Assembly (NCBI GenBank): GCA_964447275.1
Contig: CAYURI010000002.1
Location: 17,197-81,196 of the forward strand
Direction of reading: 5' to 3'
Source: an uncultured Muribaculaceae bacterium
Lineage (GTDB): Bacteria > Bacillota_I > Bacilli_A > RF39 > UBA660
DNA: 64,000 bases
In this document: positions 36,979 through 63,291 of the stretch, piece by piece
Layout of the letters: every line of letters begins with the position of its first letter
Position numbering within the stretch: the stretch's first letter is position 1
Position numbers and translations under genes: made by a program
The notes under the pieces: model-generated
What the model saw: only the letters and a program-made list of their open reading frames with translations
Database searches by the model: none
What the model was told of the DNA's origin: nothing

Positions 36979-37026
36979 AAAAACGTTAAACCGCTTAGTC
37001 GTTAATAAAAGAGGTAGGTGATTATT

Positions 37027-45653: not shown

Positions 45654-46109
45654 ATGAAAGAAAGTTTATGGGGTTATTGGTTGATTGTTCTAGGAATATT
45701 TGTTATAATCATCATGATGCTAGTACAAGATTTTACAACCACGAATACTCAAGATTACTATCTTTTAAAAGAAGTAACAGAAGCATCAATGATTGATGCC
45801 GTAGATTATGCTTATTATAGACAACATGGTGAAGTGAAAATTAACAAAGAAAAGTTTGTTGAAAATTTCTTAAGAAGGTTTTCGGAAACAATGAATCTTA
45901 ATAAAACTTATCGAGTTGATTTTTACGGAATATATGAGTCACCACCTAAAGTAAGTGTGAAAATTACGACGACGAGTAATACCTTTACAATAGCTGGAGA
46001 TCAAACATCATTTGATATTGTAAATAAATTAGATGCGATATTAGAACTGAAAATTGGCACATCTAGTTATGAAGATAACTATAATATAAATAGTTATGTA
46101 GGAAGTTAA
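45654..46109 (+). CDS. Small N-terminally anchored membrane protein, possibly a pilin-like or minor subunit
   Basis: WGYWLIVLGIFVIIIMMLV hydrophobic N-terminus followed by a polar domain of about 120 aa. Sits between the giant protein and the CpaB-like gene. Confidence 0.35.
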   Translation: MKESLWGYWLIVLGIFVIIIMMLVQDFTTTNTQDYYLLKEVTEASMIDAVDYAYYRQHGEVKINKEKFVENFLRRFSETMNLNKTYRVDFYGIYESPPKVSVKITTTSNTFTIAGDQTSFDIVNKLDAILELKIGTSSYEDNYNINSYVGS

Positions 46110-46125
46110 AAAGGAGGAATAGAAA

Positions 46126-46989: not shown

Positions 46990-47015
46990 TAAATAAAGAA
47001 TAAAGAGGTGTCAAA

Positions 47016-48134
47016 ATGAATGATGCAATTTTCTCGCAAATTGATTTTGGACCGGTTAAAGAGTTTTTAGATAATGATGATATAACTGATATTAGTTATA
47101 CTAATAATGGTCAAGTATGGTTAAAAACATTATCTAAAGGCGTATATAGTATTGATCGTCCAGAAATTAATAATGCTTTCATCGAAAAACTAGCCTTTCA
47201 ATGTTCTAATGTTATGGGTAAGACCTTTAATATGGCTCATCCAGTCTTAGATGCTGAAAGTGCTGAGCTTCGTATGAATTTCATCCATGAATCAATTTCT
47301 TCTAACGGGATTGCTTGTGTTATTCGTAAAACACCTGCTAAAATTAGATTAAACAAGGAGAAATTACTTGATGAAAAATATATTACTTTAGAATTACATG
47401 ATTTTTTAATTAAATGTGTAGAAGGTCATTGTAATATAATCGTCTCTGGTGAAACAGGTAGTGGTAAAACTGAGTTAGTTAAATACTTAGCTAGTTTTAC
47501 GAAAGAAAATGAAAAAGTTATCACCATTGAAGATACCCTAGAACTTCATTTAGATAGAATATTTCCCCATCGTGATATTGTTGCCATGAAAATTAATAAT
47601 ATTATGTCTTATAGTGATATTTTAGTGGCTTGTATGAGACAAAACCCAAGATGGATACTTTTATCCGAAGTTCGTAGTGCTGAAGCAGTAATGGCCGTAA
47701 GAAACTCTATTTCATCAGGTCATAATATCTTATCAACTATTCACTCTGATAAAGCCGAAAACATTCCAATGAGAATGTATTCTTTACTAGAAACCAACTT
47801 AGACATTGATCAATTCTTAAAGTCTATTCATCGTTATGTTCAACTTGGTGTTCATGTTAGAGGTTATATGAGTAAAGAACTTGGTAGATTTCAAAGAGAA
47901 ATTGTTGAAGTAGTTGAGTTTTATGTTGATGATGATAACAATGCTAAAAGCAATATGATATTTAGAAAGAGTCCTGATGGTAAAGTGGCTATTCAAAATC
48001 CAACTAAATATTTAATTGGCTATATGGAAGCCCAGGGAGTATCAATACCGGAAAACATCTTTTCTTCAGTAACTAAAACTGAAGAAGTAAAACCAAGTTT
48101 TATAATAAATAAAGAAGAAGTCGAAGTTTTATAA
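47016..48134 (+). CDS. Tad/Flp pilus secretion ATPase CpaF/TadA (VirB11/GspE superfamily)
   Basis: Walker A IIVSGETGSGKTELVKYL, Asp box ITIEDTLELHL, Walker B WILLSEVR, His box HNILSTIHS. 372 aa. Confidence 0.75.
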   Translation: MNDAIFSQIDFGPVKEFLDNDDITDISYTNNGQVWLKTLSKGVYSIDRPEINNAFIEKLAFQCSNVMGKTFNMAHPVLDAESAELRMNFIHESISSNGIACVIRKTPAKIRLNKEKLLDEKYITLELHDFLIKCVEGHCNIIVSGETGSGKTELVKYLASFTKENEKVITIEDTLELHLDRIFPHRDIVAMKINNIMSYSDILVACMRQNPRWILLSEVRSAEAVMAVRNSISSGHNILSTIHSDKAENIPMRMYSLLETNLDIDQFLKSIHRYVQLGVHVRGYMSKELGRFQREIVEVVEFYVDDDNNAKSNMIFRKSPDGKVAIQNPTKYLIGYMEAQGVSIPENIFSSVTKTEEVKPSFIINKEEVEVL

Positions 48135-48153
48135 AAAAGAAAGAGGTGCAGCT

Positions 48154-49047: not shown

Positions 49048-49048
49048 T

Positions 49049-49837
49049 ATGTACTTTGAAATTTTATTAATTGGTGTCATTATTTATTTCTTACTAGATT
49101 TTAGTGGTCGATTAAGTACTAATCGTTTTATTGAAGATAATGAAACTTATTTTCGTAAATTAAAAGAAAATGATTATGATTTTTATTGCTATGCTAAATA
49201 TGGTAATGGGATTGATGTTGACAAATTGTTTTCAATTCGTTTAAGAAATGGCTTATTATCAATTATTGTTTTATTATTCTTATTCTTAACTAAGTTAAGC
49301 TATGTAAATGTCATATTTTCCCTATTAGTTGGGTTTGGAATCTTTAAATTAGATTATGTAAGCAAGCGTAATTATTATAAAAAGCATTTACATGATATTG
49401 ACCTTTTATTACCATATTATTTAAAAAGCTTAGAAATCTTAATTCAACATTATACTGTGCCAGTTGCGATGGGTAAATCAGTTGAAGATGCCCCAGCGAT
49501 ATTCAAAGATGGTTTAGTAAAGTTGGTTGAAAAGATTGATGCCGGAGATGCTTCGATTGAGCCATATATGGAATTTGCAAGAGAATACCCAGTAAGAGAC
49601 TCAATGCGTATGATGCGACTTTTATATCGTTTAAGCTTAGGTAGACAAGACAGAAAACAAGAACAATTATTAACATTTTCCAAAACAATATCTAACTTAC
49701 AACAAAAATCTCGCGAAACTAAATATAAAGAACGTTTAGAAAAAATGGAAAGCAAAACGATGTATATGTTAGTATCAACTGGAGCTGGCGTTATGTTATT
49801 ATTAGTTTTATCAATATTAATGATGTTTAATATGTAA
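49049..49837 (+). CDS. TadC-like inner-membrane platform protein
   Basis: Same architecture as the preceding gene, with 1-nt spacing. Confidence 0.5.
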   Translation: MYFEILLIGVIIYFLLDFSGRLSTNRFIEDNETYFRKLKENDYDFYCYAKYGNGIDVDKLFSIRLRNGLLSIIVLLFLFLTKLSYVNVIFSLLVGFGIFKLDYVSKRNYYKKHLHDIDLLLPYYLKSLEILIQHYTVPVAMGKSVEDAPAIFKDGLVKLVEKIDAGDASIEPYMEFAREYPVRDSMRMMRLLYRLSLGRQDRKQEQLLTFSKTISNLQQKSRETKYKERLEKMESKTMYMLVSTGAGVMLLLVLSILMMFNM

Positions 49838-50150: not shown

Positions 50151-50591
50151 ATGAGAGAGGCAATAGGTGGAACATGGCTATTTAATATAGTCGTTCTATT
50201 TGTAATGTTGTTTACTGGCTACCTATGTCTAGCCATTAATTATTCGCGAGCTTATAATGTAAAAAATGAAATAGTTGATATCATTGAAAGAGAAAATGGT
50301 TATAATGATAAAGCAGTCAAAGATATTGCTTCATATTTAACTGAAATAGGCTATCGAACAACTGGTAAATGTGAAGAAGATATGATAGGAAACAACAGCG
50401 ATAAAGACTTTGGTGTTGGTGAAAATATATATTGTTACAAAGCAATAAAAGTTGGTGGCGAAGAAGACTATGCGGAAAGTGTTTATTATCAAGTAGAAGT
50501 TTTCTTTCAAATTGATTTACCAATATTTAGAGATTGGTTTACTTTTTCCATAAAAGGCGATTCTAATCAATTATTTTATAGTGAAAGTTAA
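50151..50591 (+). CDS. TadE-like pseudopilin, paralog 1
   Basis: MREAIGGTWLFNIVVLFVMLFTGYLCLAINYSRAYNVKNEIVDIIERENG follows the TadE N-terminal pattern (hydrophobic helix, then aIeFgRa...l.na.REGaR-like). Confidence 0.5.
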   Translation: MREAIGGTWLFNIVVLFVMLFTGYLCLAINYSRAYNVKNEIVDIIERENGYNDKAVKDIASYLTEIGYRTTGKCEEDMIGNNSDKDFGVGENIYCYKAIKVGGEEDYAESVYYQVEVFFQIDLPIFRDWFTFSIKGDSNQLFYSES

Positions 50592-50611
50592 TAAAAGTAA
50601 GGTGATGTAAA

Positions 50612-51091
50612 ATGCGACAATCAATTGGTAGTACATGGTTATTTTCATTAATGATTATTTTCATCTTACTTTTTACTGCTTATTTAGCAGTAGCTATTAA
50701 TTACTCAAAAGCTTTTAAAGTCAAAAATGAGTTAATTAATATTATTGAAAGAGAAGAGGGCCTTACTAGTAATATAGACGAAGAAGACCCAGGAGCAGTA
50801 GAGCAAATTGATAAATATTTAGAGAGCGTTGGTTATGTGAATCGTGGTAACTGTCCAAGTGGTTATCAAGGTTATAACAAATATAAAGATGGTAATAAAA
50901 CCAAGTATGGTTATTGCGTTAAAAAATATAATAGCTATAATGAAAAAGAACGTCAAAGATCATATTATAGTGTTGTATTGTTTTTTAATATGGATTTACC
51001 AATCTTCGGTGATTTCTTTACTTTCAGAGTAAAAGGAGAAACTACCGAAATAGTATATCCAGCTGATTGTATAACTTGGCTAGAATGTTAG
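50612..51091 (+). CDS. TadE-like pseudopilin, paralog 2
   Basis: MRQSIGSTWLFSLMIIFILLFTAYLAVAINYSKAFKVKNELINIIEREEG. Also shares the C-terminal FFNMDLPIFGDFFTF motif with paralog 1 (FFQIDLPIFRDWFTF). Confidence 0.5.
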   Translation: MRQSIGSTWLFSLMIIFILLFTAYLAVAINYSKAFKVKNELINIIEREEGLTSNIDEEDPGAVEQIDKYLESVGYVNRGNCPSGYQGYNKYKDGNKTKYGYCVKKYNSYNEKERQRSYYSVVLFFNMDLPIFGDFFTFRVKGETTEIVYPADCITWLEC

Positions 51092-51109
51092 AATAAAAGG
51101 GAGATTTTT

Positions 51110-52102
51110 ATGAATGTAATCGTAGCTAATAAGTATCAAGCGATGCTTGCTAATTTAGATATTGATATTATTAAGACCATGTATGGTGAATTTAGCGTTG
51201 ATGAAATAATTGAAACTTTCACTAATTTTTTCTATAATCGCATGATTTTAGATATAACAGCGATTAAAGGCTATAAAGATATTAATAATATTCAAAGGTT
51301 ATCAGCAGGTTTAGATATGAGCAAAATTATCTTAGTTTTAGATGATAGTGAAGAATCATCTAGTGCTAATTACTTATCTAAACTGATATCAATGGGTATA
51401 TATAACTTTAGTAGGAATGTTGATACCATTAAATATTTAATTCAAAATCCCAATAGTTATAAAGATGTAGCTCAAATTCATCAATTAAATGACTTAACAA
51501 CCACGATTGTAGAAAAAGTAGAAGGTGGACTTCCTGATACCAAAATTATTGGTGTTTCTAACATTACTGATCACGCTGGAGCTACTACTTTAATTTATAT
51601 GCTAAAAAAACAATTACAAGCTAATTACAAAGTTATAGGAATTGAAGTTGATCGTAAAGACTTCTCATTATTTAATGATCCTAATTTAGTTAGTACAACA
51701 TCTCAAGACTTTGCCAAAGAATTAATGAAAGCTAAAGATTTTGACATTATTTTAGTTGATTTAAATGGGACTGATAATGAAGATGCTTGCAGTGATATAT
51801 TATACTTAATTGAACCTAGTACCATCAAATTAAATAAAATGATTAGAAGGAATCGCAGCATCTTTGAGAAACTAAAAGGCAAAAAGATTGTTTTAAATAA
51901 AAGCTTATTAGATAGTAAAGATGTTTTAGATTTTGAATATGAAGCCAAAACTCAAGTATATTATAATATCCCACCATTAGATGATAAAAAAGATCGTCAT
52001 AATGTTTTGGATGTCTTCTTAACAAAACTAGGCTTTATTAAACAAAATAGTGAAGAAAACACAGAAAAGAGCAATAAAATATTGGGTTTATTTAAATTTT
52101 AG
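51110..52102 (+). CDS. TadZ/CpaE-like protein (REC-like N-domain plus ParA/MinD-like domain with a degenerate Walker A)
   Basis: KIIGVSNITDHAGATTLIYMLKKQL occupies the position of the CpaE deviant Walker A (xGxKGGVGxTT) but lacks the Lys. Confidence 0.35.
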   Translation: MNVIVANKYQAMLANLDIDIIKTMYGEFSVDEIIETFTNFFYNRMILDITAIKGYKDINNIQRLSAGLDMSKIILVLDDSEESSSANYLSKLISMGIYNFSRNVDTIKYLIQNPNSYKDVAQIHQLNDLTTTIVEKVEGGLPDTKIIGVSNITDHAGATTLIYMLKKQLQANYKVIGIEVDRKDFSLFNDPNLVSTTSQDFAKELMKAKDFDIILVDLNGTDNEDACSDILYLIEPSTIKLNKMIRRNRSIFEKLKGKKIVLNKSLLDSKDVLDFEYEAKTQVYYNIPPLDDKKDRHNVLDVFLTKLGFIKQNSEENTEKSNKILGLFKF

Positions 52103-52112
52103 TTAACTATGG

Positions 52113-52141
52113 TTGACAAAAGTTTTAATAAAGATTAAAAT
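52113..52141 (+). promoter_or_regulatory. Internal sigma-A-like promoter (TTGACA, 17 nt, TAAAAT) between the Tad module and the downstream module
   Basis: TTGACA at 52113-18 and TAAAAT at 52136-41 lie in the 63-nt gap before the 52166 gene. Confidence 0.4.
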
Positions 52142-52165
52142 TAACTTAGAGAGTGAGGAAAAAAT

Positions 52166-52489
52166 ATGACATTTTGTACAGATGCCGCTTCAATTTTAGG
52201 ATTTATAGGAACAGTATTCTTTGTATTTAAAATTGCTATTCCAGTATTATTAATTGTACTTGGATCAATCGATTTAGGAAAGGCTGTTGTTGCTCAAAGT
52301 GAAGATGAAATTAAGAAGGCAACACAAATATTAGTAAAAAGAGCCGTATTTGGAGTTATCATATTCTTTATACCTACAATAGTTGGTTTAGTATTTGGCT
52401 TAGTAGGATCATTTAAAGCTGAATATCAAGATCAATATAATGTTTGTCGAGAATGCATTGTTCATCCATTTTCTGGAAACTGCGAATAA
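52166..52489 (+). CDS. Small membrane protein: the minimal member of a three-paralog family sharing a helix / charged loop / helix module with a Cys tail
   Basis: ILGFIGTVFFVFKIAIPVLLIVLGSIDLGKAVVAQSEDEIKKATQILVKRAVFGVIIFFIPTIVGLVFGL then CRECIVHPFSGNCE. Confidence 0.5.
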   Translation: MTFCTDAASILGFIGTVFFVFKIAIPVLLIVLGSIDLGKAVVAQSEDEIKKATQILVKRAVFGVIIFFIPTIVGLVFGLVGSFKAEYQDQYNVCRECIVHPFSGNCE

Positions 52490-52567
52490 TAAAAAAAATA
52501 GTCAACATTTTCTTGGTGCTTGACTTTTTTTATGCTATAATTTCCTTAGATAGTGAGTGATTATTTA

Positions 52568-53686
52568 ATGAAAAAGATCATTTTAATAATATTGACAGCT
52601 TTAGTAAGTTTATTTATTTTTAATTATAATGTGGAGGCTTTGAATTCTGATGCTACAGCGACATGCGTGTATAAGATTCCAGGGAGTAATGTTTTTAATT
52701 CTTTTACCTATGAATATGCTAATGTTGACGGTTCTTATAATTGCTCTGTTCCTCCAACTACATCTTCGAATGTATATATATGTGAAGTAGATAGCGGACT
52801 TACAAAAGAAAAGTTTGTTAACAATAAAACTGATGAGCTTCTGTGCCCGATATTATACTATAGCTACGGAATTAAATCGTCTTTAGCTATAGAAGGATCC
52901 CCATCAATAACTACTCATTCATTCGCTATTTCTTTCAAAGATTATAATGAAAATTTGTCATGGTTTCAGAAAATATTTGATGGTAAAACTGTGTATGGAG
53001 CAATGAACTTATCGTTTTCAAGTATCAAACAAGGATCTCAAAAAATAGAAGAAGAAAATGAATCGAAATATCTACAATGTATATGTGGAGACATCTTGCT
53101 AAAGCAAGGATCTTTAACTTTTAACAATCAATACAGCCAATATTCTCAAGAAACTGATTTTACTAGTTTTAATTTAAACAATTTTACAAAATGCCCAGAA
53201 GCGATATATTATAAGTTTAATGATGCGTTTTTATCTGGGAATAGATACATGGATATAAGAGATACTAATTTTGACAAGGCTCAATCAGCGGCCTGTGCAA
53301 CTACTGAAGATGCTGATGCTTGGGATGGGTCATCAGGTAATGATACTGATTATAAACCTCAAGAAGATGTAATAAAATCTTTTTGCGAAGAAACGCACGG
53401 TGTTTGGAAGATGGCTGGCTATTTAATTAATGCCTTAAAAGTAATGATTCCCGTAATTATAATTGTTATGGGGTCAATTGATTTAGGTAAAGCTGTGGTT
53501 GCTAATAGCGAAGATGAAATGAAAAAGGCCACTCAAGTACTAATAAAAAGAGTTATAGCCGGAATAATAATTTTCTTTATCCCAACTATTATGAACTTAA
53601 TATTAAAAATGGCATCTAATTACGTGTCAACAATTAGTAGTAGTTCAAGTTGTGTTGAATGTGTTACAAAGCCTTGGGGATGTTAA
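52568..53686 (+). CDS. Secreted Cys-rich protein carrying the same C-terminal helix-loop-helix membrane module (paralog 2)
   Basis: Signal peptide MKKIILIILTALVSLFIFNYNVEA. Ectodomain of about 270 aa with many Cys. C-terminus MIPVIIIVMGSIDLGKAVVANSEDEMKKATQVLIKRVIAGIIIFFIPTI...CVECVTKPWGC. Confidence 0.5.
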   Translation: MKKIILIILTALVSLFIFNYNVEALNSDATATCVYKIPGSNVFNSFTYEYANVDGSYNCSVPPTTSSNVYICEVDSGLTKEKFVNNKTDELLCPILYYSYGIKSSLAIEGSPSITTHSFAISFKDYNENLSWFQKIFDGKTVYGAMNLSFSSIKQGSQKIEEENESKYLQCICGDILLKQGSLTFNNQYSQYSQETDFTSFNLNNFTKCPEAIYYKFNDAFLSGNRYMDIRDTNFDKAQSAACATTEDADAWDGSSGNDTDYKPQEDVIKSFCEETHGVWKMAGYLINALKVMIPVIIIVMGSIDLGKAVVANSEDEMKKATQVLIKRVIAGIIIFFIPTIMNLILKMASNYVSTISSSSSCVECVTKPWGC

Positions 53687-53746
53687 TAAACTTCTTGGCA
53701 TAAAAATGAATATATGTTAGAATAAAATATGATAGGGAGTGTAAAC

Positions 53747-54460
53747 ATGAAGTGCTTAAAAATTTTATTTATTTTTGCTTTTACTTTATTTACTAGTATT
53801 GTTTTTATAGATAAGGTTAATGCTGCTAGTTCTTGTTATTGCTGTGGAGGAGCTGGCGGTTGTACTTATGTGTGGAAAGAGGCTAGAGATGCTAACGGCA
53901 CAAATTGTGTTAAAGTTTCTAAAAGTAAAACTGCTTGTAATGGGACAAACACTACAAATGGCAGCGGTGCTTGCTGGTATTGTGAAACAGGTTCTACGAG
54001 TGGGTACAGATGGACTTCTGATGGTTCTAAACCAAATGCTAATTGTTATGTGGTAAACGGAAAAACTCAATCAAGTTGTAATGGATCATCAACTGGCGGC
54101 GGTTCGGGCTCAGGATCAACTTCGGATGATGAGACCTACGAAGATTATGAGGATTCTGATGGCCCTGATATTAGTGGTCCATCAACATCATCAGGTTGTT
54201 CAGGAATTATTGGTAATGGCCAATTTCGTATTTATTTAACTGATATTCTTAATGCAATGAGAATAGTTGGCGTTGCAATGGTTATTGTTTTTTCCACAAT
54301 TGATTTTGCACAAGCTTTAATTACTCAAGATAATGATGCAATGAAAAAGGCTTCTGAAAAGTCAATGAAGAGACTAATATTAGCAATGGTTATATTCTTT
54401 ACCCCAATTTTATTAAATATTTTATTATCATTAGTTGGTATAGACGCGAGTTGTATATAA
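53747..54460 (+). CDS. Secreted Cys-rich protein carrying the same C-terminal module (paralog 3)
   Basis: Signal peptide MKCLKILFIFAFTLFTSIVFIDKVNA. SSCYCCGGAGGC...CWYCETG Cys-rich domain, then a Gly/Ser/acidic linker. C-terminus RIVGVAMVIVFSTIDFAQALITQDNDAMKKASEKSMKRLILAMVIFFTPIL...DASCI. Confidence 0.5.
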   Translation: MKCLKILFIFAFTLFTSIVFIDKVNAASSCYCCGGAGGCTYVWKEARDANGTNCVKVSKSKTACNGTNTTNGSGACWYCETGSTSGYRWTSDGSKPNANCYVVNGKTQSSCNGSSTGGGSGSGSTSDDETYEDYEDSDGPDISGPSTSSGCSGIIGNGQFRIYLTDILNAMRIVGVAMVIVFSTIDFAQALITQDNDAMKKASEKSMKRLILAMVIFFTPILLNILLSLVGIDASCI

Positions 54461-54480: not shown

Positions 54481-56385
54481 ATGGCAGATTTACTATTAAC
54501 ATGTGGAACTGGTATGAGGGTGTTTTATTCAATAATGCTCTCGCTAGATTCAGCTATTTATTGGTGTGTAGATGTTGTATATAGCGTTTTTATTGTTATA
54601 TGTAATACACAATTGTTTTCTGCCACCACTTTCGAAGCATTTTCGAGCAGAATCTATGCTATTTTTGGCGTAGTTATGCTATTTATTGTTACGAGCCAGT
54701 TACTTGTTAATATTGCTGACCCTGACAAAGCAGCGTCCGGAGAAGCGAGCACTGCTAAACTTGTTCAAAATATTATAATTGCTTTAATTTCGATAGTTTT
54801 GCTACCGACAGTTTTTAAATATTTATATGTTATCCAAAAGGCTGTTGTTACTGAAAATATTATTGGTAATATAATTGTTGGTGGATATGAGACATCAACG
54901 AGCAAAGATTTTAAAAGCATGGTAAAGCATAGTGGGAAAGATATGGCTTTTAGAACATTTACAGCTTTTATTAATCCTGCTGGGTATGCGGGTAATAATG
55001 ATAAGGGATGCGAAGCAATACCAGGTTTAACTTATTGTCTTATTTACGATAAAATAAATAATTATGGTTCAAGTGATTATGGTAAAGTGTCTTTGTTCGC
55101 TAGCCAAAACCAAGTTACTAATGAAATTTATAAAGGCAAAGTTGAATATCGATGGGGATTTTCTGCTTTGGCAGGTATTTTAGTTACTTATTTTCTATTG
55201 TCATATTCAATAGATATGGGAGTGCGTGTCGCTAAGCTTGCTTACTATCAATTAATTGCTCCTGTTCCTATAGTTTTAAGAATAATTCCTAAGCAACAAT
55301 CAGTGTTTGATAACTGGGTTAAAGGGTTAACAGGCACATATATTGGCGTCTTTATTAGATTAATGATTGTATATTTTTGTATATTTTTAATAAATGTTAT
55401 ACCGGCTGCTTGGGATGGAATAGTAAAAGCTGGTGGTGGCAGTGATAGAACTATTGTTAATGCGATGGTTGTAATATTACTGATTTTTGGTGTATTTATA
55501 TTTATGAAAGAAGCACCAAAATTAATTACACAAATGTTTGGTATCAGCGAAGGTGATATGTCAATGGGTATTGGCAAAAAACTTGCTGGTGCTGCTGTTA
55601 TTGGTGGCGCAGTTGCTGGCGCTCAAAAGCTTGGTAAAAAATATGCTGGTAAAGCATATGGTGGCCTAACTGGAGCTCTTGGTGGCGGTTGGGATTCAAT
55701 GATGAATGGCGAAGGATTTGGCGCCGGATTTAGAGCTGGTGGCCTTGGTGGTTGGGATGCTGGTGGTAGACAATTTGGCAAACAACGTTTAGAATCATAC
55801 AAATCAAGAACTGGAGATTATAAAGGCAAACCTGGTATATTTGGTGATAAATCATGGGGAACAAAATATAGAAATGCAACAGGAGACGCTAGAGATGATG
55901 CTTATAAAGCTGCTTCAACGGCTAGAATACAGGCAGCTCAAATGCTTGCTGGGGCAAGCTATTCAAGATTTGTAAGTGATTTAGAAACTGAAATTCGTTC
56001 TAATCCCGCATTTATGAATAGTATAGCTGGTTATGCTCCAGATGTTCAAGATGCTTATATTAATCGCGAAATATCAAGCAGATCCAATGCGACATTGCAA
56101 AATCTGGTTAGTGGTAATGATGTTGATAGAGCAACGGCTTTATCCTATGTTAGGGATAATCTTGGAATGTCTGCCGCAGATATTAATGCTTTATCGTCAG
56201 TTGGTAAGACAGTTGCTGCTGAAGCCAAACAACAAGCTAAAGTTCAAGAAGAAAAGGATAATAAAAAAGTTGGAAGAATCTTGCAAAATGTTTCTGGTGG
56301 AGGAACTCCTCCTGCTGCACCTCCCGCTGCGCCTCCTGCTGGTGGCGCTGGTGGTGGAGCAGCTGGCGGTGGGGGACATCCATAA
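54481..56385 (+). CDS. Polytopic membrane protein, VirB6/TrbL/TcpH-like, with a Gly/Ala/Pro-rich C-terminal tail
   Basis: At least six hydrophobic helices across 330 aa (for example YQLIAPVPIVLRIIPKQQSVFDNWVKGLTGTYIGVFIRLMIVYFCIFLINVIP). Hydrophilic Gly-rich C-terminal half ending PPAAPPAAPPAGGAGGGAAGGGGHP. Sits immediately upstream of the VirB3/VirB4-like genes. Confidence 0.45.
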   Translation: MADLLLTCGTGMRVFYSIMLSLDSAIYWCVDVVYSVFIVICNTQLFSATTFEAFSSRIYAIFGVVMLFIVTSQLLVNIADPDKAASGEASTAKLVQNIIIALISIVLLPTVFKYLYVIQKAVVTENIIGNIIVGGYETSTSKDFKSMVKHSGKDMAFRTFTAFINPAGYAGNNDKGCEAIPGLTYCLIYDKINNYGSSDYGKVSLFASQNQVTNEIYKGKVEYRWGFSALAGILVTYFLLSYSIDMGVRVAKLAYYQLIAPVPIVLRIIPKQQSVFDNWVKGLTGTYIGVFIRLMIVYFCIFLINVIPAAWDGIVKAGGGSDRTIVNAMVVILLIFGVFIFMKEAPKLITQMFGISEGDMSMGIGKKLAGAAVIGGAVAGAQKLGKKYAGKAYGGLTGALGGGWDSMMNGEGFGAGFRAGGLGGWDAGGRQFGKQRLESYKSRTGDYKGKPGIFGDKSWGTKYRNATGDARDDAYKAASTARIQAAQMLAGASYSRFVSDLETEIRSNPAFMNSIAGYAPDVQDAYINREISSRSNATLQNLVSGNDVDRATALSYVRDNLGMSAADINALSSVGKTVAAEAKQQAKVQEEKDNKKVGRILQNVSGGGTPPAAPPAAPPAGGAGGGAAGGGGHP

Positions 56386-56418: not shown

Positions 56419-56733
56419 GTGTATATAATACCAGCAAACACGAAGAAATCGATGTTGATATTAGGATTTTTTACAGTATTAGACTTGATAATATTTATTA
56501 CTGGTGTTGGGTTAACCTTGATATGCTTAATAGCATTAAAAACATCTGCACTGGGATTCATGATACTAGAGTTAATGCCAGCTTTAATAGCATTATTACT
56601 TGTAACTCCAGTACCTTATTATCATAATATGCTGCAATTGATGCGAAATTTCTTTAATTTCTTTGGTAAGAGAAGAAGATACATATGGAAAGGATGGTGT
56701 TGGCATGACGACGATACAGTCAAACCAATTTAA
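56419..56733 (+). CDS. VirB3/PrgI-like small membrane protein
   Basis: About 100 aa with two hydrophobic helices. GTG start after an AAAGGAGGAAT RBS. Directly precedes the VirB4-like gene. Confidence 0.4.
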   Translation: MYIIPANTKKSMLILGFFTVLDLIIFITGVGLTLICLIALKTSALGFMILELMPALIALLLVTPVPYYHNMLQLMRNFFNFFGKRRRYIWKGWCWHDDDTVKPI

Positions 56734-57316
56734 AGCAGTTCAAAATACAATAACTAATAGTTCTAGTTCAAATACTCAATCAAAGTATTCAGAAGACTGG
56801 GTGCCAGTTAAAAATATTTTGAATGGCATGATTCATTTAGAAAATGGCGAATTTGTAACGGGTGTAAAAGTAACGCCTAAGAATATATTCATTCTTGATC
56901 AAGATAGTCAGAATAACATTATCTTTAATCTAAGAACATTTTATAATGTTATTGATTATGAGTTTTGGCTTATTATAGCGGACAGACCAGTTGATATAAA
57001 TATTTTCTTATCACAGTTACAAGTTTTATATAACGATACACCAAATCCATTAGTAAGAAAATTAATTATGCAGGATATTAATAAAGCTAATTCATTTATG
57101 AGTACGCAATTAAATGTTGTTGATACTGAGTATTTCATTTTGTTTAAAGAAAAGAAAATGGAACTTATTCAAAAACGTATTCATAGTTTAATAAGCGGAC
57201 TAGCTAATTGTCAAATGAATTCAACTCAAGTAACAAATGAGGATTTAAGGATGCTAATTGATAACTTCTTTAATGGTGGTTTAAGAACCGAGTTTAGGAC
57301 GGTGACGACAGAATGA
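56705..57316 (+). CDS. VirB4/TraE-family N-terminal domain, encoded as a separate ORF (start uncertain)
   Basis: DWVPVKNILNGMIHLENGEFVTGVKVTPKNIFILDQDSQNNIIFNLRTFYNVIDYEFWLIIADRPVDINIFL matches the N-terminal domain pattern of Gram-positive VirB4 homologues (Tn916 Orf16/TcpF-type). Its stop overlaps the next ATG (ATGA). Confidence 0.5.
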   Translation: MTTIQSNQFKAVQNTITNSSSSNTQSKYSEDWVPVKNILNGMIHLENGEFVTGVKVTPKNIFILDQDSQNNIIFNLRTFYNVIDYEFWLIIADRPVDINIFLSQLQVLYNDTPNPLVRKLIMQDINKANSFMSTQLNVVDTEYFILFKEKKMELIQKRIHSLISGLANCQMNSTQVTNEDLRMLIDNFFNGGLRTEFRTVTTE

Positions 57317-59097
57317 ATTTAAAATCAGAATTAGCCCCAAAGGGGATTGAATTTAGAAGTCAAGAATTCACGATTAGTGGTAAATATGCTGTAATTCTTA
57401 CAGTAGTAGGCTTTCCTAAATCTATTTATCCAGGTTATTTGGCAGAAGTATCTAATTTATCGGGTGTTAAAATAGTAATTAAACATATTCCTATTGAATT
57501 TTCGACATTGTCAAAAATGTTAAATAAAGAGATAGCAGATTTAAAAGTTAGATATCAAAATGAAAATGATAAAACTATTCAAGAAAGAATTAGGCAAGAT
57601 TATGAATCATTAGAAGAATTTATTCAAATGCTTGCTGCTACTCAATCAAGAATATATGACTTCCAAATGCATATTATGATTACTTCTGATACAAAAGAAG
57701 AATTAGAAGTTAAGAAGATGCAATTACGTAACTACTTAGATGCTATGGGTATGAGAGCTATACCATTAATGTTTGAACAAGAAAAAGTACTTAAATCAAT
57801 GGTACCAATATTCCCTAAACAGGATATTGAAAACAGAGTGGGAACACCAATTCCTTCTGTTACAGTAGCAGCAATGTATCCATTTGTCTTTGATAGTATT
57901 AAAGATCCAGGATTGTCTACTTTATTAGGGTTTGACTTCTCTGGTGGTGTAATATTATTTAATCAATTCTTATATCAAATTAAAAAAGAATATAACCGTA
58001 ATAATGCTAATATGATTATTCTTGGTACTAGTGGTAGTGGTAAATCTACAGCTGCTAAATTACTTTTAAGGAACCATATTAGAAATGGTTATCAAATAGT
58101 TGTAATTGACCCTGAAGGCGAATTACAAGAAATGACTAAAACGATGGGTGGTAACTTTATTGATCTAGGTAAGGGTGGAGAATTTGGGATGGTAAACCCT
58201 CTAGAAGTAATAGTTGACGCTGATGAAGAAGAACTAGAACAAGGATTAGGTTACACTATCTTAACAAGGACTTTACAAAGCTTAAAAGCTTTTATGAAAT
58301 ATTACACTCCTTCAATTGAAGAAGATGTTTTAACAATGTTTAGTGAAGTAGTTCAAGATACTTATAAACGTTATAAAATTGATTTTGATACGAACTTCTC
58401 TAAATTTAAACCGGAAGATTTCCCAACATTCAGTGATGTTTATGCAACAATTAAAGGAAGACTTCTAAGTATGCCTGAACATAGTCATGAAAAAGATGTT
58501 ATGGAACGCTTAGAATTAAAGATTAGACCACTTGTTAAAGAATTAAAATATTACTTTGATGGTCATACAACAATTGAAAGTAATACTGAGTTTATCGTAT
58601 TTAATATTAAAGAGTTAATGAACTCTGATGAAAATATTCGTAACGCTTTATTCTTTAATATATTAAAATATGCTTGGGGTTTATGTTTAGATAAATCAAT
58701 TAATACTATTATGATGGTCGATGAAGCGCATGTCTTACTTTCTAGTCGTAATGAACTTGGTGCTGAATTCTTAGCCCAAATTCAAAGACGTAGTCGTAAA
58801 TATAATACGGGGACAATTATGATTACTCAACAACCAACTGATTTCGCAGCACCTAATATTATTGTTCATGGTAAAGCCATCTTTGATAACGCAGCTTATT
58901 ATCTAGTAATGGGACTAAAGAAACAAGCAGTTGAAGATTTATCAAAATTAATTGACTTAAACGACAACGAAAGAGAAAGCATTAAATATTACAGTCAAGG
59001 TCAAGCATTATTTGTTTGTGGTAGTAGAAGAATGAGAATAAATGTCGTATTAACTCAAGAAGAATTAGATTCATTTGGTACAGGTGGCGGATTATAA
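57313..59097 (+). CDS. VirB4/TraE/TcpF-family conjugation-type ATPase (middle and ATPase domains)
   Basis: LAPKGIEFRSQEFTISGKYAVILTVVGFPKSIYPGYL, Walker A NANMIILGTSGSGKSTAAKLL, VIDPEGE, Walker B MMVDEAHVLL, IMITQQPTDF. Confidence 0.8.
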   Translation: MNLKSELAPKGIEFRSQEFTISGKYAVILTVVGFPKSIYPGYLAEVSNLSGVKIVIKHIPIEFSTLSKMLNKEIADLKVRYQNENDKTIQERIRQDYESLEEFIQMLAATQSRIYDFQMHIMITSDTKEELEVKKMQLRNYLDAMGMRAIPLMFEQEKVLKSMVPIFPKQDIENRVGTPIPSVTVAAMYPFVFDSIKDPGLSTLLGFDFSGGVILFNQFLYQIKKEYNRNNANMIILGTSGSGKSTAAKLLLRNHIRNGYQIVVIDPEGELQEMTKTMGGNFIDLGKGGEFGMVNPLEVIVDADEEELEQGLGYTILTRTLQSLKAFMKYYTPSIEEDVLTMFSEVVQDTYKRYKIDFDTNFSKFKPEDFPTFSDVYATIKGRLLSMPEHSHEKDVMERLELKIRPLVKELKYYFDGHTTIESNTEFIVFNIKELMNSDENIRNALFFNILKYAWGLCLDKSINTIMMVDEAHVLLSSRNELGAEFLAQIQRRSRKYNTGTIMITQQPTDFAAPNIIVHGKAIFDNAAYYLVMGLKKQAVEDLSKLIDLNDNERESIKYYSQGQALFVCGSRRMRINVVLTQEELDSFGTGGGL

Positions 59098-59105
59098 AAT
59101 AAACG

Positions 59106-59744
59106 GTGGTGATAGTTTTGGCAGAAACAAATGCAAATAATTTAAATAACGAATCCTTCGATCAAAGTTATGGTCGAAGGGTTTTGCGTGGTGGCAAACA
59201 ATCACAGATAGTTAAATTACCAGGAGCAACAACCGGTAACAGGTTTAATTATTCTAATGCTTTAAGAAGTAATGAAAAAAGAAAAGAAAGCGAAGAATTA
59301 ACAAAAGGAAGCCAAGAGCAAGAGGATGATGGTGAAGGGAATAAGTCTAATTTAGGCTCAAAAGCTCAAGAAGCAGCAGTTGGTATTGCAGCAAAAACTT
59401 TTTTACCACCTGGATTACAAGGAATAGGTAAATCTATTGCTAATAATGTATTAAATAGTAGTGGTGGTGTATCTGAAGCTGCAGAAAAGCTTTTAAAAGC
59501 TAAAAAAATGAAAATCTACTTATATGCTGGAATTGCTTTCTTTTCTTTTATTTTAATAATAGCAATAATATTTGCAGTCTCTTCAACTGGTGGCACTGAA
59601 TCATCTGGAGCTGGATTTAATGAAGTCTCAGAATATGAATTGAACGAGAATTATGATGAGATGCCGGAAGAAGATAATGCAGAAGACTCTAATGTTGAAG
59701 TTGTAGAAAACAGTGAGGTAAATAATAATGAAACAGCACAGTAA
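59106..59744 (+). CDS. Bitopic membrane protein with a polar/acidic C-terminus; possible VirB8-position scaffold (tentative)
   Basis: ORF with GTG/TTG start choices. One TM helix (IYLYAGIAFFSFILIIAIIFAV) near the C-terminal third and an acidic tail. Confidence 0.35.
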   Translation: MVIVLAETNANNLNNESFDQSYGRRVLRGGKQSQIVKLPGATTGNRFNYSNALRSNEKRKESEELTKGSQEQEDDGEGNKSNLGSKAQEAAVGIAAKTFLPPGLQGIGKSIANNVLNSSGGVSEAAEKLLKAKKMKIYLYAGIAFFSFILIIAIIFAVSSTGGTESSGAGFNEVSEYELNENYDEMPEEDNAEDSNVEVVENSEVNNNETAQ

Positions 59745-62700
59745 TAATTTTAAAATTATTAATATAATAGTCATTATTATAGCTTTTATTTCTAGCTTTC
59801 TTTTTAGTGTTGAACAAAACAAAATAAATTATAGTTTTGAAACAGAAGTTAATGTTATTTATAAAAATGCTTCAAATGATATGACTGAAGAAGAAAAAGA
59901 AGAATACTATCAAGACTTTTGGGAAAAAATATTTTATGAAAAAAATATTAAACCAAGTAATAAAAAGTTTTATCGTCGTTTTAATCGAGCTTACTATTGG
60001 TGGCGTTTAAGAGCTGGAGATTCTGTGGATGACCTGGCAGTTTTAGAAGCATCTAAACCGCACTTATTAGCAGCTTTATTTTTAGATTATGCACCTGATA
60101 ACTTTAACAGTGATATTTCTGAGTGGGCAGTTAATGGAGATAAAGACAATATATATATAAATGATGAAGATTTTGCTTATCAAGTCTGTGATAATTATAT
60201 AGATGAAAATGGGGCTTCTGACAATGATAGTAATTGTAGTAGTGGTGGTTTAGAAGACAAAGAATATGCTCCAAAAACAATACTTGATGTTATAGCTCGA
60301 GCCATTTCTGAAGCAATTGCAAAAGCCCAAGAATATTTAGATGATAAAGACACAATAAGAGCACTAGGTAGGCACTTGTTTGTTTACCAGCCAGTTTGTT
60401 ATTTAACAAAAGAATTGGATGATGGTACTACTCAAAAAATACCTTATGAGTATGCTAAAAAATATTCTTTTGATGAGATTTTAGATTTAATTTCTCAAAT
60501 AAAATCTTTAAAAGATATTTTTAGCATTTTCCCTGAATATACTGATTGCGTGGGCCCTGATAGTAAATGGCTAGTAAAAAATGGTGGAGATGCGATTAAG
60601 ACCGAATTTGATTTAGATGATATTGTAGATTTATGTTATTTTTATAAACATTTAGTTGAAAGTGATTATTTTGAAAACCACGTTCATTTTAAAGCTGATT
60701 TTGATAATATAAAAAAATATACTAAAACTGACCAAGAATATTTAGTAGAATCAAGTAAATTAAAAGTTGGTTTGGCTAGGCAAATAATTGATATAGTTGA
60801 TTTAGCAAATGATGATGATCCGGTTTATGATTCAAGTGTTTCAGCAGCTAGTGGAGCTTCTGTTAGCTATAGTTTATCAAAAGATTTGTATATTACACTT
60901 AGTAATAGTAGAAAAGATGATAATGGTAATTTGATAAAAAATGGATCTTATCCAATAGATCAATATGTTGAAGGAGTACTAGATGCTGAAGTTCTTGGGG
61001 TTTTCTATAGTTCTGGAGAATCAGAAGCAACTATATACACAGCTCTTCAAGCTAATGCTATAGCCATAAGAACTTATGCTTTAAAGGTTACAAACGAAGG
61101 CGTAAAATCAATTTCTAATAGTACTGATAATCAAGTTTTTACTGATCAATATTTTAAAGAGACTGGTACAAAATATATGCTGGCTAGAAACGCAGCTTTA
61201 TCTACTACTGGTCAAGTATTGACAGAAAATGGCCAACTTATAAAGTCAGAATATAGCAGTTTTAGTGAATGGACTAATTATTATTGCGAAAATGGGTTAT
61301 GTTATACTTCATACCAAAAAATAGGCTCAAAAAATAGTGGTACTTTTCATACGGTAATTGCCAAAAGTAAATGGGGTTTATCTGGTGGTCACAATCGTGG
61401 AATGAGTCAGTGGGGCTCATTGTATTTAGCAAGTCAGGGGTATACTTATACAGGAATTTTAGAAAACTTTTATGCTGAAAATGTTACTCTTGCTAATTAT
61501 GATTACAGTTATAAATCGACTGATAATGTTACCTTAGGTGAATATGGTGTTAAAGAAGCAATGTTGGTATGTGATTTGTTTACTTCTAGTGAGTACTCTG
61601 ATATTAGAGATTTACTTGGTGATAACGTTACTTTAAAAATACCTCTAAGACTTACAAGTACAAAATATCAATCATCATCAGGTTATAAAGCTTCTAGCGG
61701 CGGAACAAATGGGATTAGTTATAATAGATTTAATGGCGTTCATGGTCAAGTATTTCAGTGTGAATGGAATCCAGAACATACAGCACTTTTATATGCTTGC
61801 AACGGAGATAAAGGGTATATAATTAACAATCAAGACTATAAAAGAAATCAAGAAACAAATCAATACCAAACATATAAAAGGAATTCAGATGGTACATTAG
61901 CCAAAGATAGTGAAGGTAACCAATTATATGTTGAAACAGACAATGCTAGCAAAAGGATTTTGCTTGATGTAAGTGAAGCAAGTCGAGCTGATGTTTATCT
62001 CCCTAGCGCGATAGTATGGCAATATGCACTAAACACGTCTACTATAAAAATACCTACTGAAGGTGGATGGGACGATCACGGATATATCGAGGCGGTTACT
62101 GGGTTTTATCCGCATTATGTAAGTGGTACATTGCCTTCTACCATCACTTATAGGCCAGTAATAAATTATGATGGAACAGCTAAAACCGAGACCATTTCAA
62201 CTGGGTTAACATGTCCTAGTAGTGATTATGAATTAGTTGCTGAAAACTGCTGTTTAGTTACTGATAAAACCCAATGTGAACCTGCTATTGAAGGAACTAC
62301 TGAAAGAGTTGTTTATGAGACAGACAATAAAAAGCCTTCAGCAGATGAGCTATTTGCTTCTAGATATGATACAATGCTAGTCGCTGGTGAAGCTGTAAAT
62401 TTAGAGACAGAATATAATACGATTTTATTTACTGGTGTTATTGATTCAGCTGCAGTTGCTATTACTAGTTCTGACCCATCAAGATTTTGGGATACTGATC
62501 ATGCTGATACAATTTTATATATGTATGTTCCTGATTATAATGATATAGATCCTGAACTTCAGCCATACTTTTCTAATGAGGTAACAAATATTTTGCAGCT
62601 AACCTCAGCTAGCAGGAGTGGCAATATTAGAGATGGAGTAGACTTAGTCGCAGCTAAAGGTGAAACTCCAACAGCTGGTTTTATTAATGTAACAGAGTTT

Positions 62701-63291
62701 TTAGAATCTTTAGGATTTACAAATATTGGTGGAATGGCTAATGGTGCTTGGGATGATCTTGAAGCTCATCACTGGCAACTAGCTTGTGATTATTCTAATT
62801 CTCTTACTTTGGCTGGTATGTCATTGTCTGATTTGGAAAGAGATTACTGTTGTAAAGGGCTATTTCATGAAAATCCTAGTTATGACTCATATGATGCAGG
62901 TACCGGAAGAAGTTATCGTGAAACTTCATCAGATTTAGGTGGATATTTCAGTGATGCTTGGAAAATAGAGTTTTGTAACGAGACTATTGAAGGTGCTAAA
63001 TTAGTTAAAGCAGCTTGTAAAGCAGCATTTGCTGAACAAAGTGCTTGTATATCTCAATGTTATGCAAGTCTTAAAGAAGAAGATGCTTCAGCTTTAGGCT
63101 ATAAATGGAATTCAAAAGGCTATTGGTATAATGCCAAAGGACCAATTTTTGATTCAAATAAAACAGCAGTAGGATGTACATATAATACTGGTGATTTTGG
63201 TGCTACCGTTTCAGAAACTAGAAAAATCGGCCCAGAAGGGGAATGCCCTTGTAGTATATTAGGAAATTCTGGAGGCAGTTCTAATGCTTAA
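59728..63291 (+). CDS. 1187-aa membrane-anchored protein with a SpoIID/LytB-type peptidoglycan-remodelling domain; candidate T4SS-associated cell-wall hydrolase (VirB1 functional analogue)
   Basis: N-terminal TM IINIIVIIIAFISSFLFSV. SpoIID/LytB signatures EVLGVFYSSGESEATIYTALQANAIAIRTYAL, NQVFTDQY, SGGHNRGMSQWGSLYLASQGYTYTGILENFY. Large additional Cys-containing extracellular regions. Confidence 0.6.
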   Translation: MKQHSNNFKIINIIVIIIAFISSFLFSVEQNKINYSFETEVNVIYKNASNDMTEEEKEEYYQDFWEKIFYEKNIKPSNKKFYRRFNRAYYWWRLRAGDSVDDLAVLEASKPHLLAALFLDYAPDNFNSDISEWAVNGDKDNIYINDEDFAYQVCDNYIDENGASDNDSNCSSGGLEDKEYAPKTILDVIARAISEAIAKAQEYLDDKDTIRALGRHLFVYQPVCYLTKELDDGTTQKIPYEYAKKYSFDEILDLISQIKSLKDIFSIFPEYTDCVGPDSKWLVKNGGDAIKTEFDLDDIVDLCYFYKHLVESDYFENHVHFKADFDNIKKYTKTDQEYLVESSKLKVGLARQIIDIVDLANDDDPVYDSSVSAASGASVSYSLSKDLYITLSNSRKDDNGNLIKNGSYPIDQYVEGVLDAEVLGVFYSSGESEATIYTALQANAIAIRTYALKVTNEGVKSISNSTDNQVFTDQYFKETGTKYMLARNAALSTTGQVLTENGQLIKSEYSSFSEWTNYYCENGLCYTSYQKIGSKNSGTFHTVIAKSKWGLSGGHNRGMSQWGSLYLASQGYTYTGILENFYAENVTLANYDYSYKSTDNVTLGEYGVKEAMLVCDLFTSSEYSDIRDLLGDNVTLKIPLRLTSTKYQSSSGYKASSGGTNGISYNRFNGVHGQVFQCEWNPEHTALLYACNGDKGYIINNQDYKRNQETNQYQTYKRNSDGTLAKDSEGNQLYVETDNASKRILLDVSEASRADVYLPSAIVWQYALNTSTIKIPTEGGWDDHGYIEAVTGFYPHYVSGTLPSTITYRPVINYDGTAKTETISTGLTCPSSDYELVAENCCLVTDKTQCEPAIEGTTERVVYETDNKKPSADELFASRYDTMLVAGEAVNLETEYNTILFTGVIDSAAVAITSSDPSRFWDTDHADTILYMYVPDYNDIDPELQPYFSNEVTNILQLTSASRSGNIRDGVDLVAAKGETPTAGFINVTEFLESLGFTNIGGMANGAWDDLEAHHWQLACDYSNSLTLAGMSLSDLERDYCCKGLFHENPSYDSYDAGTGRSYRETSSDLGGYFSDAWKIEFCNETIEGAKLVKAACKAAFAEQSACISQCYASLKEEDASALGYKWNSKGYWYNAKGPIFDSNKTAVGCTYNTGDFGATVSETRKIGPEGECPCSILGNSGGSSNA

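Follow-up and report, generated by a model that had tools for sequence, protein, structure and literature searches.

In the window, by which we mean the whole 64,000-nucleotide stretch of DNA analysed, two overlapping genes on the forward strand very probably give one VirB4-type conjugation ATPase in the form of two translationally coupled polypeptides. Classical VirB4 is a single chain of about 800 amino acids (aa); here a protein of 203 aa and one of 594 aa take its place. Given this departure from the single chain and the separation of the two counterparts in each of the 79 evaluable related loci, we regard the pair as a two-chain variant of VirB4, and as an ordinary member of a known, little-discussed kind.

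Layout of the pair and its VirB4 identity

The upstream gene, ORF1 (56705..57316, +), ends with a TGA at 57314-57316, and the downstream gene, ORF2 (57313..59097, +), opens with an ATG, the stop and the start overlapping in an ATGA at 57313..57316. The preliminary description had read these overlapping frames as one VirB4 with an ATGA joint and ORF2 in the -1 frame relative to ORF1, which was borne out by the ORF list and by the sequence itself (...ACA GAA TGA, with the ATG at 57313-57315). The motifs it had singled out were all present in the translations, namely WVPVKNIL, GVKVTPKNIFILDQDS and FWLIIADRPVDI in ORF1 and LAPKGIEFRSQEF, ILGTSGSGKST and MMVDEAHVLL in ORF2. The longest reading of ORF1 in the ORF list (56663..57316, +; 217 aa) uses a TTG at 56663, the earliest possible start. 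However, the ATG at 56705 is the likelier start, because the resulting 203 aa equal the gene call of a 98%-identical protein (P0001); ORF1 homologues align only from around residues 16-26, with a AAAGGATGGTG stretch upstream. From this ATG the two products add up to 797 aa, so that the size of about 811 aa first proposed was right in that the two ORFs sum to the length of a VirB4 but was probably somewhat too large.

Both proteins matched the NCBIfam profile NF045975 (VirB4_plasma) in the order of the profile, ORF1 at positions 94-276 (E 3e-13, 48.4 bits) and ORF2 at positions 294-891 (E 4.5e-105, 352.2 bits). This agreement is far above chance and, judged by sequence profiles, the pair is VirB4. 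The equivalog cut-off of this family (Mbov_0397) is a whole-protein score of 590 bits and was reached by neither ORF1 nor ORF2, which leaves the window proteins outside the equivalog with NF045975 as their closest curated relative. In addition, ORF2 matched AAA_10, P-loop_TraG and DUF87 in Pfam as well as other VirB4-type profiles (TIGR00929, E 7.5e-24; TraC-F-type, E 1.7e-32), and proteins like ORF2 alone carry the NCBI name 'VirB4 family type IV secretion system protein'.

The features that define the VirB4/TraC/TrbE class were then located on the two chains. Residues 200-594 of ORF2 make up the RecA-like C-terminal ATPase domain, with a Walker A motif GTSGSGKST (58024..58050, +; residues 238-246) and a Walker B region MMVDEAH (58711..58731, +; residues 467-473) that aligned with the Walker A and the VVDEAW of PDB 4AG5. 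To our knowledge, 4AG5 is the sole crystal structure of a Gram-positive VirB4. Because this structure of the C-terminal ATPase domain covers only residues 200-593 of ORF2 (E 4.5e-56), residues 1-199 were assigned to the N-terminal domain, as its second half. A VirB4-type N-terminal domain thus precedes the ATPase but is divided between the chains: it runs through ORF1 and resumes, in residues 2-199 of ORF2, from NF045975 position 294. The original division into an N-domain ORF and an ATPase ORF therefore holds as far as two pieces of VirB4 are concerned, but the profile match and the 4AG5 alignment place the break inside the N-terminal domain and not at the ATPase boundary.

ORF1 is a free-standing VirB4 N-terminal subdomain, probably of the Pfam family PF26593 ('TraC-like'). 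A Pfam search with ORF1 gave no match even at E <= 10, and its membership is inferred by proxy: PF26593 is in the precomputed annotation of P0001 and of all 120 best ORF1 homologues. The predicted model of ORF1 found its best match in the N-terminal region of TrwK, on which it superposes. A PDB sequence search with ORF1 returned sporulation kinase D (E 0.008) and TFIIH p8; both matches were short, at chance level and without any relation to what the structure and the profiles showed, and were rejected.

Conservation of the split among related elements

The preliminary description had left three options for the joint, a natural coupled split, a programmed -1 frameshift, and an inactivating frameshift or sequencing error, and had proposed a comparison of orthologues. 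Counterparts of ORF1 and ORF2 were separate in 79/79 evaluable loci, each from another species, down to 60% identity, and the same split position recurred in distant lineages at 23-32% identity. The best 120 homologues of ORF1 were all free-standing proteins of 162-214 aa. Fused VirB4 relatives exist and span 800-894 aa; in two of them (P0187, 800 aa; P0264, 839 aa) ORF1 matched inside the first ~200 residues. Among the 80 loci formed by the window and its relatives, no continuous ORF one indel away from the present locus was found. Both genes are under purifying selection, with a median dN/dS of 0.20 for ORF1 and 0.12 for ORF2 (0.06 and 0.03 against the closest relative, at a dS of ~0.8-0.9). 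This two-gene organisation, conserved across taxa, therefore decides for the first option, a natural, translationally coupled split. Judged from the loci compared, a large group of Gram-positive mobile elements normally carries VirB4 in this split form, which is conserved among them.

The order VirB3-like gene, TraC-like gene (~210 aa), VirB4 gene (~600 aa) was found in a MobL-type element, in pBMB67, in Thermoanaerobacter ethanolicus and in Syntrophomonas zehnderi. Thermoanaerobacter, whose T. pseudethanolicus protein provided the C-terminal domain in PDB 4AG5 and 4AG6, has the same architecture as the window, with a PrgI/VirB3-like protein of 99 aa, a PF26593 TraC-like protein of 208 aa, a VirB4 of 594 aa (the length of ORF2) and a hydrolase downstream. 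The identity to the window is ~29% in the ATPase half and ~23% in the N-terminal half, and the two Thermoanaerobacter genes lie 14 nt apart whereas those of the window overlap. The modules also differ in content: a MobL relaxase, TrbL_4 and a Peptidase_M23 hydrolase are present in Thermoanaerobacter, a VirB6-like protein of 634 aa and a hydrolase with a SpoIID domain in the window, where the analysis identified no relaxase. The same pair of a TraC-like protein (~200 aa) and a VirB4 (~594 aa), separated by 1 nt, occurs in Syntrophomonas. Bacillus thuringiensis plasmids of the pBMB67 type (NC_009841) combine a MobP3 relaxase, a VirD4-like protein, TrbL, a PrgI family protein, a 227-aa ORF1 homologue (32% identical to ORF1 over 122 aligned residues) and a 630-aa ATPase, in matching order. 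Here 3 nt separate the two genes, which RefSeq names 'hypothetical protein' (the N-terminal piece) and 'DUF87 domain-containing protein' (the ATPase). pBMB67 and pBMB68 are listed among plasmids without demonstrated conjugation (PMC9673590).

Single-chain systems provide the other side of the comparison. The VirB4 of Mycoplasma integrative elements (NF045975, Mbov_0397; CDS17/TraE-type) gave the highest scores of all curated families with both window halves, and the Mbov_0396 family of the same elements is matched by the neighbouring membrane protein of the window. However, the mycoplasma protein is one chain of ~894 aa, and the window halves score 48 and 352 bits against the cut-off given above. 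The ATPase family of ORF2 is also shared by TrwK/VirB4 of R388 (cryo-EM structures 7O42, 7O43 and 8RTB) and by other VirB4/TraC/TrbE proteins. In contrast to the window pair, TrwK-type proteins are single polypeptides of ~800-820 aa that work in a Gram-negative apparatus with an outer-membrane complex, and their identity to ORF1 is ~10%.

We considered the possibility that ORF1, although descended from a VirB4 N-terminus, is now an independent accessory factor (for instance a VirB3-bound assembly or regulatory protein) and not an obligatory stoichiometric subunit. Its faster evolution, seen in the dN/dS values above, and the short gap that replaces the overlap in three distant lineages (14, 3 and 1 nt) would agree with such a role. 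So would the fact that the 594-aa Thermoanaerobacter protein was purified and studied alone as 'full-length' VirB4 (PMC3969286), which suggests that the ATPase half can at least stay in solution on its own. On the other hand, in every locus examined ORF1 directly precedes ORF2 on the same strand, and the junction is coupled or nearly so. Fused and split forms were interleaved in rough neighbour-joining trees of both halves, which are weakly supported and from which we claim no polarity; the interleaving speaks for two arrangements that can replace each other in function. Moreover, the N-terminal domain of R388 VirB4 (residues 15-400) forms the dimer interface, is integral to the hexamer interfaces and binds VirB3 together with the VirB8 tails (PMC9259494). 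We thus consider an accessory role for ORF1 improbable.

The junction and its signals

The reading of two coupled genes was next set against the features of the junction, for which the sample comprised 80 junctions, those of the window and of the 79 evaluable related loci, one per species. The last codons of ORF1 include a Shine-Dalgarno-like GGTGA (57301..57305, +), separated from the downstream ATG at 57313 by 7 nt. The ATG was kept in 80/80 junctions and the GGTGA in 78/80, with a spacer of 7 nt in 71. In 63 of the 75 ORF1 tails the GGTGA was spelled by the Thr-Val codons ACG-GTG, against a background in the same genes of 14% ACG among Thr codons and 10% GTG among Val codons. Contact between stop and start, and a Shine-Dalgarno-like motif inside the upstream gene, are thus both present and both conserved, as in translationally coupled overlapping pairs.

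A programmed -1 frameshift near 57300-57316 would instead yield a single VirB4 of ~797 aa, with the separate products as by-products or regulatory forms. The -1 frame of ORF2 relative to ORF1, the summed length, which is that of a single-chain VirB4, and the fused relatives of 800-894 aa are all compatible with this reading. However, a TAG in the ORF2 frame (57295..57297, +), 15 nt upstream of the ORF2 ATG, confines any -1 frameshift to the 19 nt at 57298-57316, and this segment (GACGGTGACGACAGAATGA) contains neither an X XXY YYZ slippery heptamer nor a homopolymer run. A search for such a heptamer had been suggested in the preliminary description; none was found upstream of the overlap, and the hallmark of frameshifted genes of the dnaX or IS3-transposase type is therefore missing from it. 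The junctions of the relatives also disagree with frameshifting: 47 of the 80 have an ATGA, 27 a TAATG and 6 a stop followed by 1 nt and an ATG, the last form implying another frame relation, so that two different relations occur while the start codon and the Shine-Dalgarno-like motif persist across them. The spacers of 14 nt in Thermoanaerobacter and 3 nt in pBMB67 add to this. These comparative data largely refute a programmed frameshift, which we consider very unlikely.

That a continuous virB4 was broken by an inactivating frameshift and is now a pseudogene, or only looks broken through a one-base error of sequencing or assembly, can be set aside almost with certainty. Classical VirB4 is one chain, and a single indel could mimic a split in one sequence. 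However, the split position is common to all evaluable species loci and to the distant lineages, practically every relative has both genes unbroken, both halves are under strong purifying selection, and the start codon and the Shine-Dalgarno-like motif are kept right at the junction. The one ORF2 that looks truncated (L003) is an artefact of a run of N bases in that assembly.

The surrounding module and the proposed two-chain motor

The location of the pair in a conjugation cluster is consistent with its assignment to VirB4. At the upstream end of the cluster lies a VirB11/TadA-like secretion ATPase of 372 aa (47016..48134, +; Pfam T2SSE, E 1.7e-27), whose match to the VirB11 profile TIGR02788 (E 1.6e-33) stays under the cut-off. 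A polytopic membrane protein of 634 aa (54481..56385, +) takes a VirB6-like position, held by a TrbL_4 gene in relatives; its weak NCBIfam matches, ICE_Mbov_0396_TM (E 3.5e-8) and pLS20_p028 (E 4.9e-4), are both under the curated cut-offs. It is followed by a small membrane protein of 104 aa (56419..56733, +) in the VirB3/PrgI position, whose gene shares its last 29 nt with ORF1 when the latter is read from its likely start. This protein gave no profile match in Pfam or NCBIfam, and its putative role comes from synteny: in pBMB67 and in two other loci (L088 and L090), the TraC-like gene comes after a gene of 98-111 aa in this position, named PrgI in Pfam or RefSeq. Downstream of ORF2, a SpoIID/LytB-domain protein of 1187 aa (59728..63291, +; Pfam SpoIID, E 1.8e-7; TIGR02669, E 3.4e-16) probably serves the transfer apparatus as its cell-wall hydrolase, in the position of a Peptidase_M23 gene in Thermoanaerobacter and MobL-type modules. 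No record identical to the ORF2 protein was found. The closest relative, a 98%-identical locus on contig JASEYN010000215.1 of GCA_030154545.1, has the same gene order as the window and a complete module, in which a gene for a VirD4-type coupling protein follows downstream, at a place that corresponds to a point beyond the window end.

Taken together, these features suggest the following mechanism for the two coupled genes. ORF1 would supply the first ~200 residues of the VirB4 N-terminal domain, and ORF2 the remainder together with the Walker A/B ATPase domain. Both would be translated from one mRNA, on which a ribosome ending ORF1 at the TGA would already sit on the ATG of ORF2, with the GGTGA aiding initiation; such coupling would provide roughly matched amounts of the two subunits. 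We infer that both chains assemble non-covalently into the fold of a single-chain VirB4, which would dock on the VirB3/PrgI-like membrane protein encoded just upstream and drive the conjugation module, a type IV secretion system of Gram-positive type, in the 3' part of the window. Subunit association, coupling and machine activity are predictions from the sequence.

The motor of the window should thus be scored as intact, and the transfer module should not be called decayed on this ground. Thousands of such loci will be labelled wrongly by annotation pipelines, and by finders of integrative elements or type IV secretion systems, whose expected VirB4 is ~800 aa long; they may be called frameshifted, or the 200-aa partner may be left a 'hypothetical protein', as in RefSeq for pBMB67. 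No explicit description of a split VirB4 was found in the literature searched, a scope outside which most subscription-journal papers fall, and the terms 'split', 'fission', 'two polypeptides' and 'truncated' are absent from a 2025 review of type IV secretion nomenclature. These results leave the present picture of type IV secretion as it is. Within the N-terminal domain of VirB4, the natural break defines a domain boundary, which could help in the design of constructs.

A bolder and rather doubtful proposal is that the two-chain form is ancient and widespread in the type IV secretion systems of monoderms and that fused and split forms interconvert repeatedly. If so, the free N-terminal subunit would be a separable adaptor between the VirB3/PrgI membrane protein and the ATPase ring, and its stoichiometry or timing could regulate assembly. 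The 594-aa Thermoanaerobacter VirB4, reportedly in a monomer-dimer equilibrium, would then have been examined without its natural partner, which may explain the missing hexamers.

Finally, we considered whether TGA encodes Trp in the window (genetic code 4), as some hosts bear the label Mycoplasma or Tenericutes. We dismissed this reading: long open frames contain 79 TGG and 8 TGA codons, and the TGAs checked against the ORF list sit at ORF boundaries. In the window, TGG is Trp and TGA is a genuine but rare stop codon, in contrast to the mycoplasma VirB4 family. Read under code 4, ORF1 would gain two codons only (TGA ATT TAA).

Two consecutive reading frames of one VirB4

The preliminary description of two ORFs joined by an ATGA overlap, with ORF2 in the -1 frame relative to ORF1, was borne out by the ORF list and sequence of the window, and all the peptide motifs it quoted were found in the two ORFs. 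ORF1, the N-terminal piece, spans 56663-57316 (+) from its earliest start, a TTG (217 aa), and ORF2, the ATPase piece, runs from an ATG at 57313 to 59097 (+; 594 aa), the junction reading ACG GTG ACG ACA GAA TGA. Because the gene call of a 98%-identical protein (P0001) agrees and homologue alignments begin there, the ATG at 56705 (203 aa) is the likely start of ORF1. The window has a G+C content of 28.9%; Trp is encoded by TGG and TGA is rarely used as a stop (in 4 of 62 open frames with 100 codons or more), thus the bacterial genetic code holds.

Profile searches matched ORF2 to Pfam AAA_10, P-loop_TraG and DUF87. The crystallised VirB4 C-terminal domain (4AG5) aligned with ORF2 residues 200-593 (E 4.5e-56), and the Walker A (GTSGSGKST) and Walker B (MMVDEAH) motifs of ORF2 aligned with those of 4AG5. 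ORF1 had no match in the Pfam models searched. NCBIfam NF045975, a profile of 894 positions for the VirB4 that mycoplasma ICEs encode as a single chain, was covered in order by ORF1 (positions 94-276, E 3e-13) and then ORF2 (positions 294-891, E 4.5e-105), indicating that the ORFs are consecutive parts of one VirB4. The N-terminal domain of R388 TrwK comprises residues 15-400 (PMC9259494) and the ATPase domain starts only at ORF2 residue 200; therefore, the break lies inside the N-terminal domain. The earlier reading as "N-domain plus ATPase" thus stood in that the pieces form one VirB4, but not in placing the break at the ATPase boundary. Functionally and by descent the pair belongs to VirB4, although it is not the single polypeptide of classical VirB4 and falls short of the score threshold of NF045975, the nearest curated equivalog.

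Conservation of the split and nature of the junction

An ORF1 search returned 6865 homologues, the best 120 of which were all free-standing proteins of 162-214 aa with Pfam PF26593 ('TraC-like'). Related loci were then scanned with one genome per species, giving 80 loci, mainly from uncultured gut Bacilli and 'Tenericutes' MAGs and including Mycoplasma sp. CAG:956 and Coprobacillus sp. CAG:605. The comparison with orthologues proposed in the preliminary description had a clear outcome: ORF1 and ORF2 homologues were separate genes in all 79 evaluable loci. An apparent ORF2 truncation at one locus (L003) was rejected, as it comes from N bases in the assembly. Median dN/dS (pairwise Nei-Gojobori) was 0.20 for ORF1 and 0.12 for ORF2, and 0.06 and 0.03, respectively, against the closest species locus (dS ~0.8-0.9), so both are kept by selection as coding sequences.

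The junctions (n = 80, window included) were of the type ATGA (47), TAATG (27) or stop plus one base plus ATG (6); the ATG was kept in all 80, though the last type shifts ORF2 to another frame relative to ORF1. This variety bears on the frame-disruption readings raised earlier. In the window, a TAG at 57295-57297 (+), 15 nt 5' of the ORF2 ATG, closes the ORF2 frame, leaving only 19 nt for a -1 frameshift; neither an X XXY YYZ heptamer nor a homopolymer run occurs in these 19 nt, which extend through the ORF1 stop. With the varied junctions in relatives, these observations rule out a conserved programmed frameshift; a pseudogene (inactivating frameshift) and a sequencing error are excluded by the same evidence.

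A cluster-representative search with ORF1 gave 453 related clusters. Among the best 150, several free-standing proteins of 179-239 aa shared only 26-32% identity, and only P0187 (800 aa) and P0264 (839 aa) were clearly fused. Fused and split forms were interleaved in neighbour-joining trees, which are rough and too weak to order the two states. The order small VirB3/PrgI-like gene, TraC-like gene (~210 aa), ATPase gene (~600 aa) was shared in distant settings: an element with a MobL relaxase (L081), a short contig on which the overlap is likewise 4 nt (L086), the B. thuringiensis plasmid pBMB67 (NC_009841.1, 8926-11505), Thermoanaerobacter ethanolicus (L088/L089, 4360-6785) and Syntrophomonas zehnderi. 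In L081 and L088 the small gene and the TraC-like gene overlap by 4-8 nt. In the window, the upstream gene for a 104-aa membrane protein ends 29 nt into ORF1, counted from the likely ORF1 start (56705-56733); with the ATGA, the VirB3-position gene, ORF1 and ORF2 are thus three consecutive genes chained by overlaps.

Probable translational coupling and a probable two-subunit VirB4

GGTGA, which matches part of the extended Shine-Dalgarno consensus pairing with the 16S rRNA 3' end, preceded the ORF2 ATG in 78 of 80 junctions (57301-57305 (+) in the window), with a 7-nt spacer in 71. Thr-Val written as ACG-GTG supplies the motif in 63 of 75 ORF1 tails. Both codons are uncommon in these genes (ACG, 14% of Thr codons; GTG, 10% of Val codons), which points to selection on the nucleotides of GGTGA itself.

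The best-supported reading, and very probably the correct one, is that translational coupling of ORF1 and ORF2 produces a two-subunit VirB4. The analysis shows that the halves are homologous to VirB4 and lie in its order, that they are conserved and under selection, and that the junction carries translation signals; association of the two proteins, coupling and activity we infer. ORF1 translation would terminate at TGA 57314-57316 and ORF2 would initiate at ATG 57313, helped by the upstream GGTGA. Coupling would keep the output of the two chains matched, and together they would rebuild the VirB4 fold. The N-terminal domain of R388 TrwK forms the dimer interface and binds VirB3 and the VirB8 tails (PMC9259494); by analogy, ORF1 probably mediates oligomerisation and docking on the small membrane protein encoded upstream.

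A TAA lies two codons past the TGA in the ORF1 frame (TGA ATT TAA, 57314-57322), and by eye the same holds for most ATGA-type junctions. The conserved first residues of ORF2, Met-Asn-(Ile/Leu)-Lys, give rise to this TAA, which could serve as a back-up stop.

The crystallised Thermoanaerobacter pseudethanolicus fragment (392 aa) derives from a family of 593-597-aa proteins (P0271-P0292), so the well-known 4AG5 'VirB4' is the ATPase half of a TraC-like/ATPase pair. This is the only Gram-positive VirB4 crystal structure (source protein ~594 aa). In T. ethanolicus (L088/L089) a separate 208-aa PF26593 TraC-like gene precedes the ~594-aa VirB4 gene; thus, the 'full-length' Thermoanaerobacter VirB4 of the literature, reported in monomer-dimer equilibrium (PMC3969286), lacks the first ~200 residues of canonical VirB4 and was studied without its partner subunit.

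The split arrangement is already in databases, as Pfam PF26593 and the NCBI name 'VirB4 family' for ~594-aa proteins, and no explicit description of a split VirB4 was found in the literature searched, whose coverage was incomplete. A by-product is an annotation caveat for such loci. In RefSeq pBMB67, the ORF1 homologue is a 'hypothetical protein' and the ATPase half a 'DUF87 domain-containing protein'; VirB4 is not named in the record, though MOB-suite types the plasmid as conjugative.

The surrounding gene cluster

The pair sits within a conjugation-type cluster. From its upstream end this comprises an RcpC-like gene and a VirB11/TadA-like ATPase gene (46126-48134), several unassigned ORFs, a 634-aa membrane protein in the VirB6 position (54481-56385; weak Mbov_0396 and pLS20_p028 matches), the 104-aa protein directly before ORF1 and ORF2, a 212-aa ORF and a 1187-aa protein with a SpoIID domain, the probable hydrolase. 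Gene order is identical in the closest relative (L091), where a VirD4-type coupling protein lies ~5 kb past the hydrolase, a position equivalent to one beyond the window end. No relaxase was recognised within the 64-kb window. Neither a 1118-aa ORF at 42281-45637 (+) nor any of six ORFs (146-377 aa) within the transfer cluster at 50151-54460 (+) had a Pfam/NCBIfam match at E <= 0.001.

Directly upstream in the conjugation-type cluster, 45654-49837 (+) encodes DUF5411 (E 7e-61), the RcpC/CpaB-like protein, the VirB11/TadA-like T2SSE ATPase and two ORFs without assignment (297 and 262 aa), a group that looks like a Tad/Flp-pilus assembly set joined to a monoderm conjugation module. The fused P0187 (L084) likewise has a T2SSE ATPase a few genes 5', and one is present in L091. 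The 634-aa protein carries a low-complexity Gly/Ala/Pro C-terminal tail, GGGTPPAAPPAAPPAGGAGGGAAGGGGHP (~56290-56382), unusual for a 29% G+C genome. A gene at 37018-38592 (+), some 4 kb 5' of the 1118-aa ORF, encodes a 524-aa ABC-F protein. Its score with the NCBIfam 'ribosomal protection-like ABC-F family' model was 368.5 bits (E 5.8e-110), just below the model's 380-bit cut-off; judged by this match, it is possibly an antibiotic-resistance-type ABC-F.
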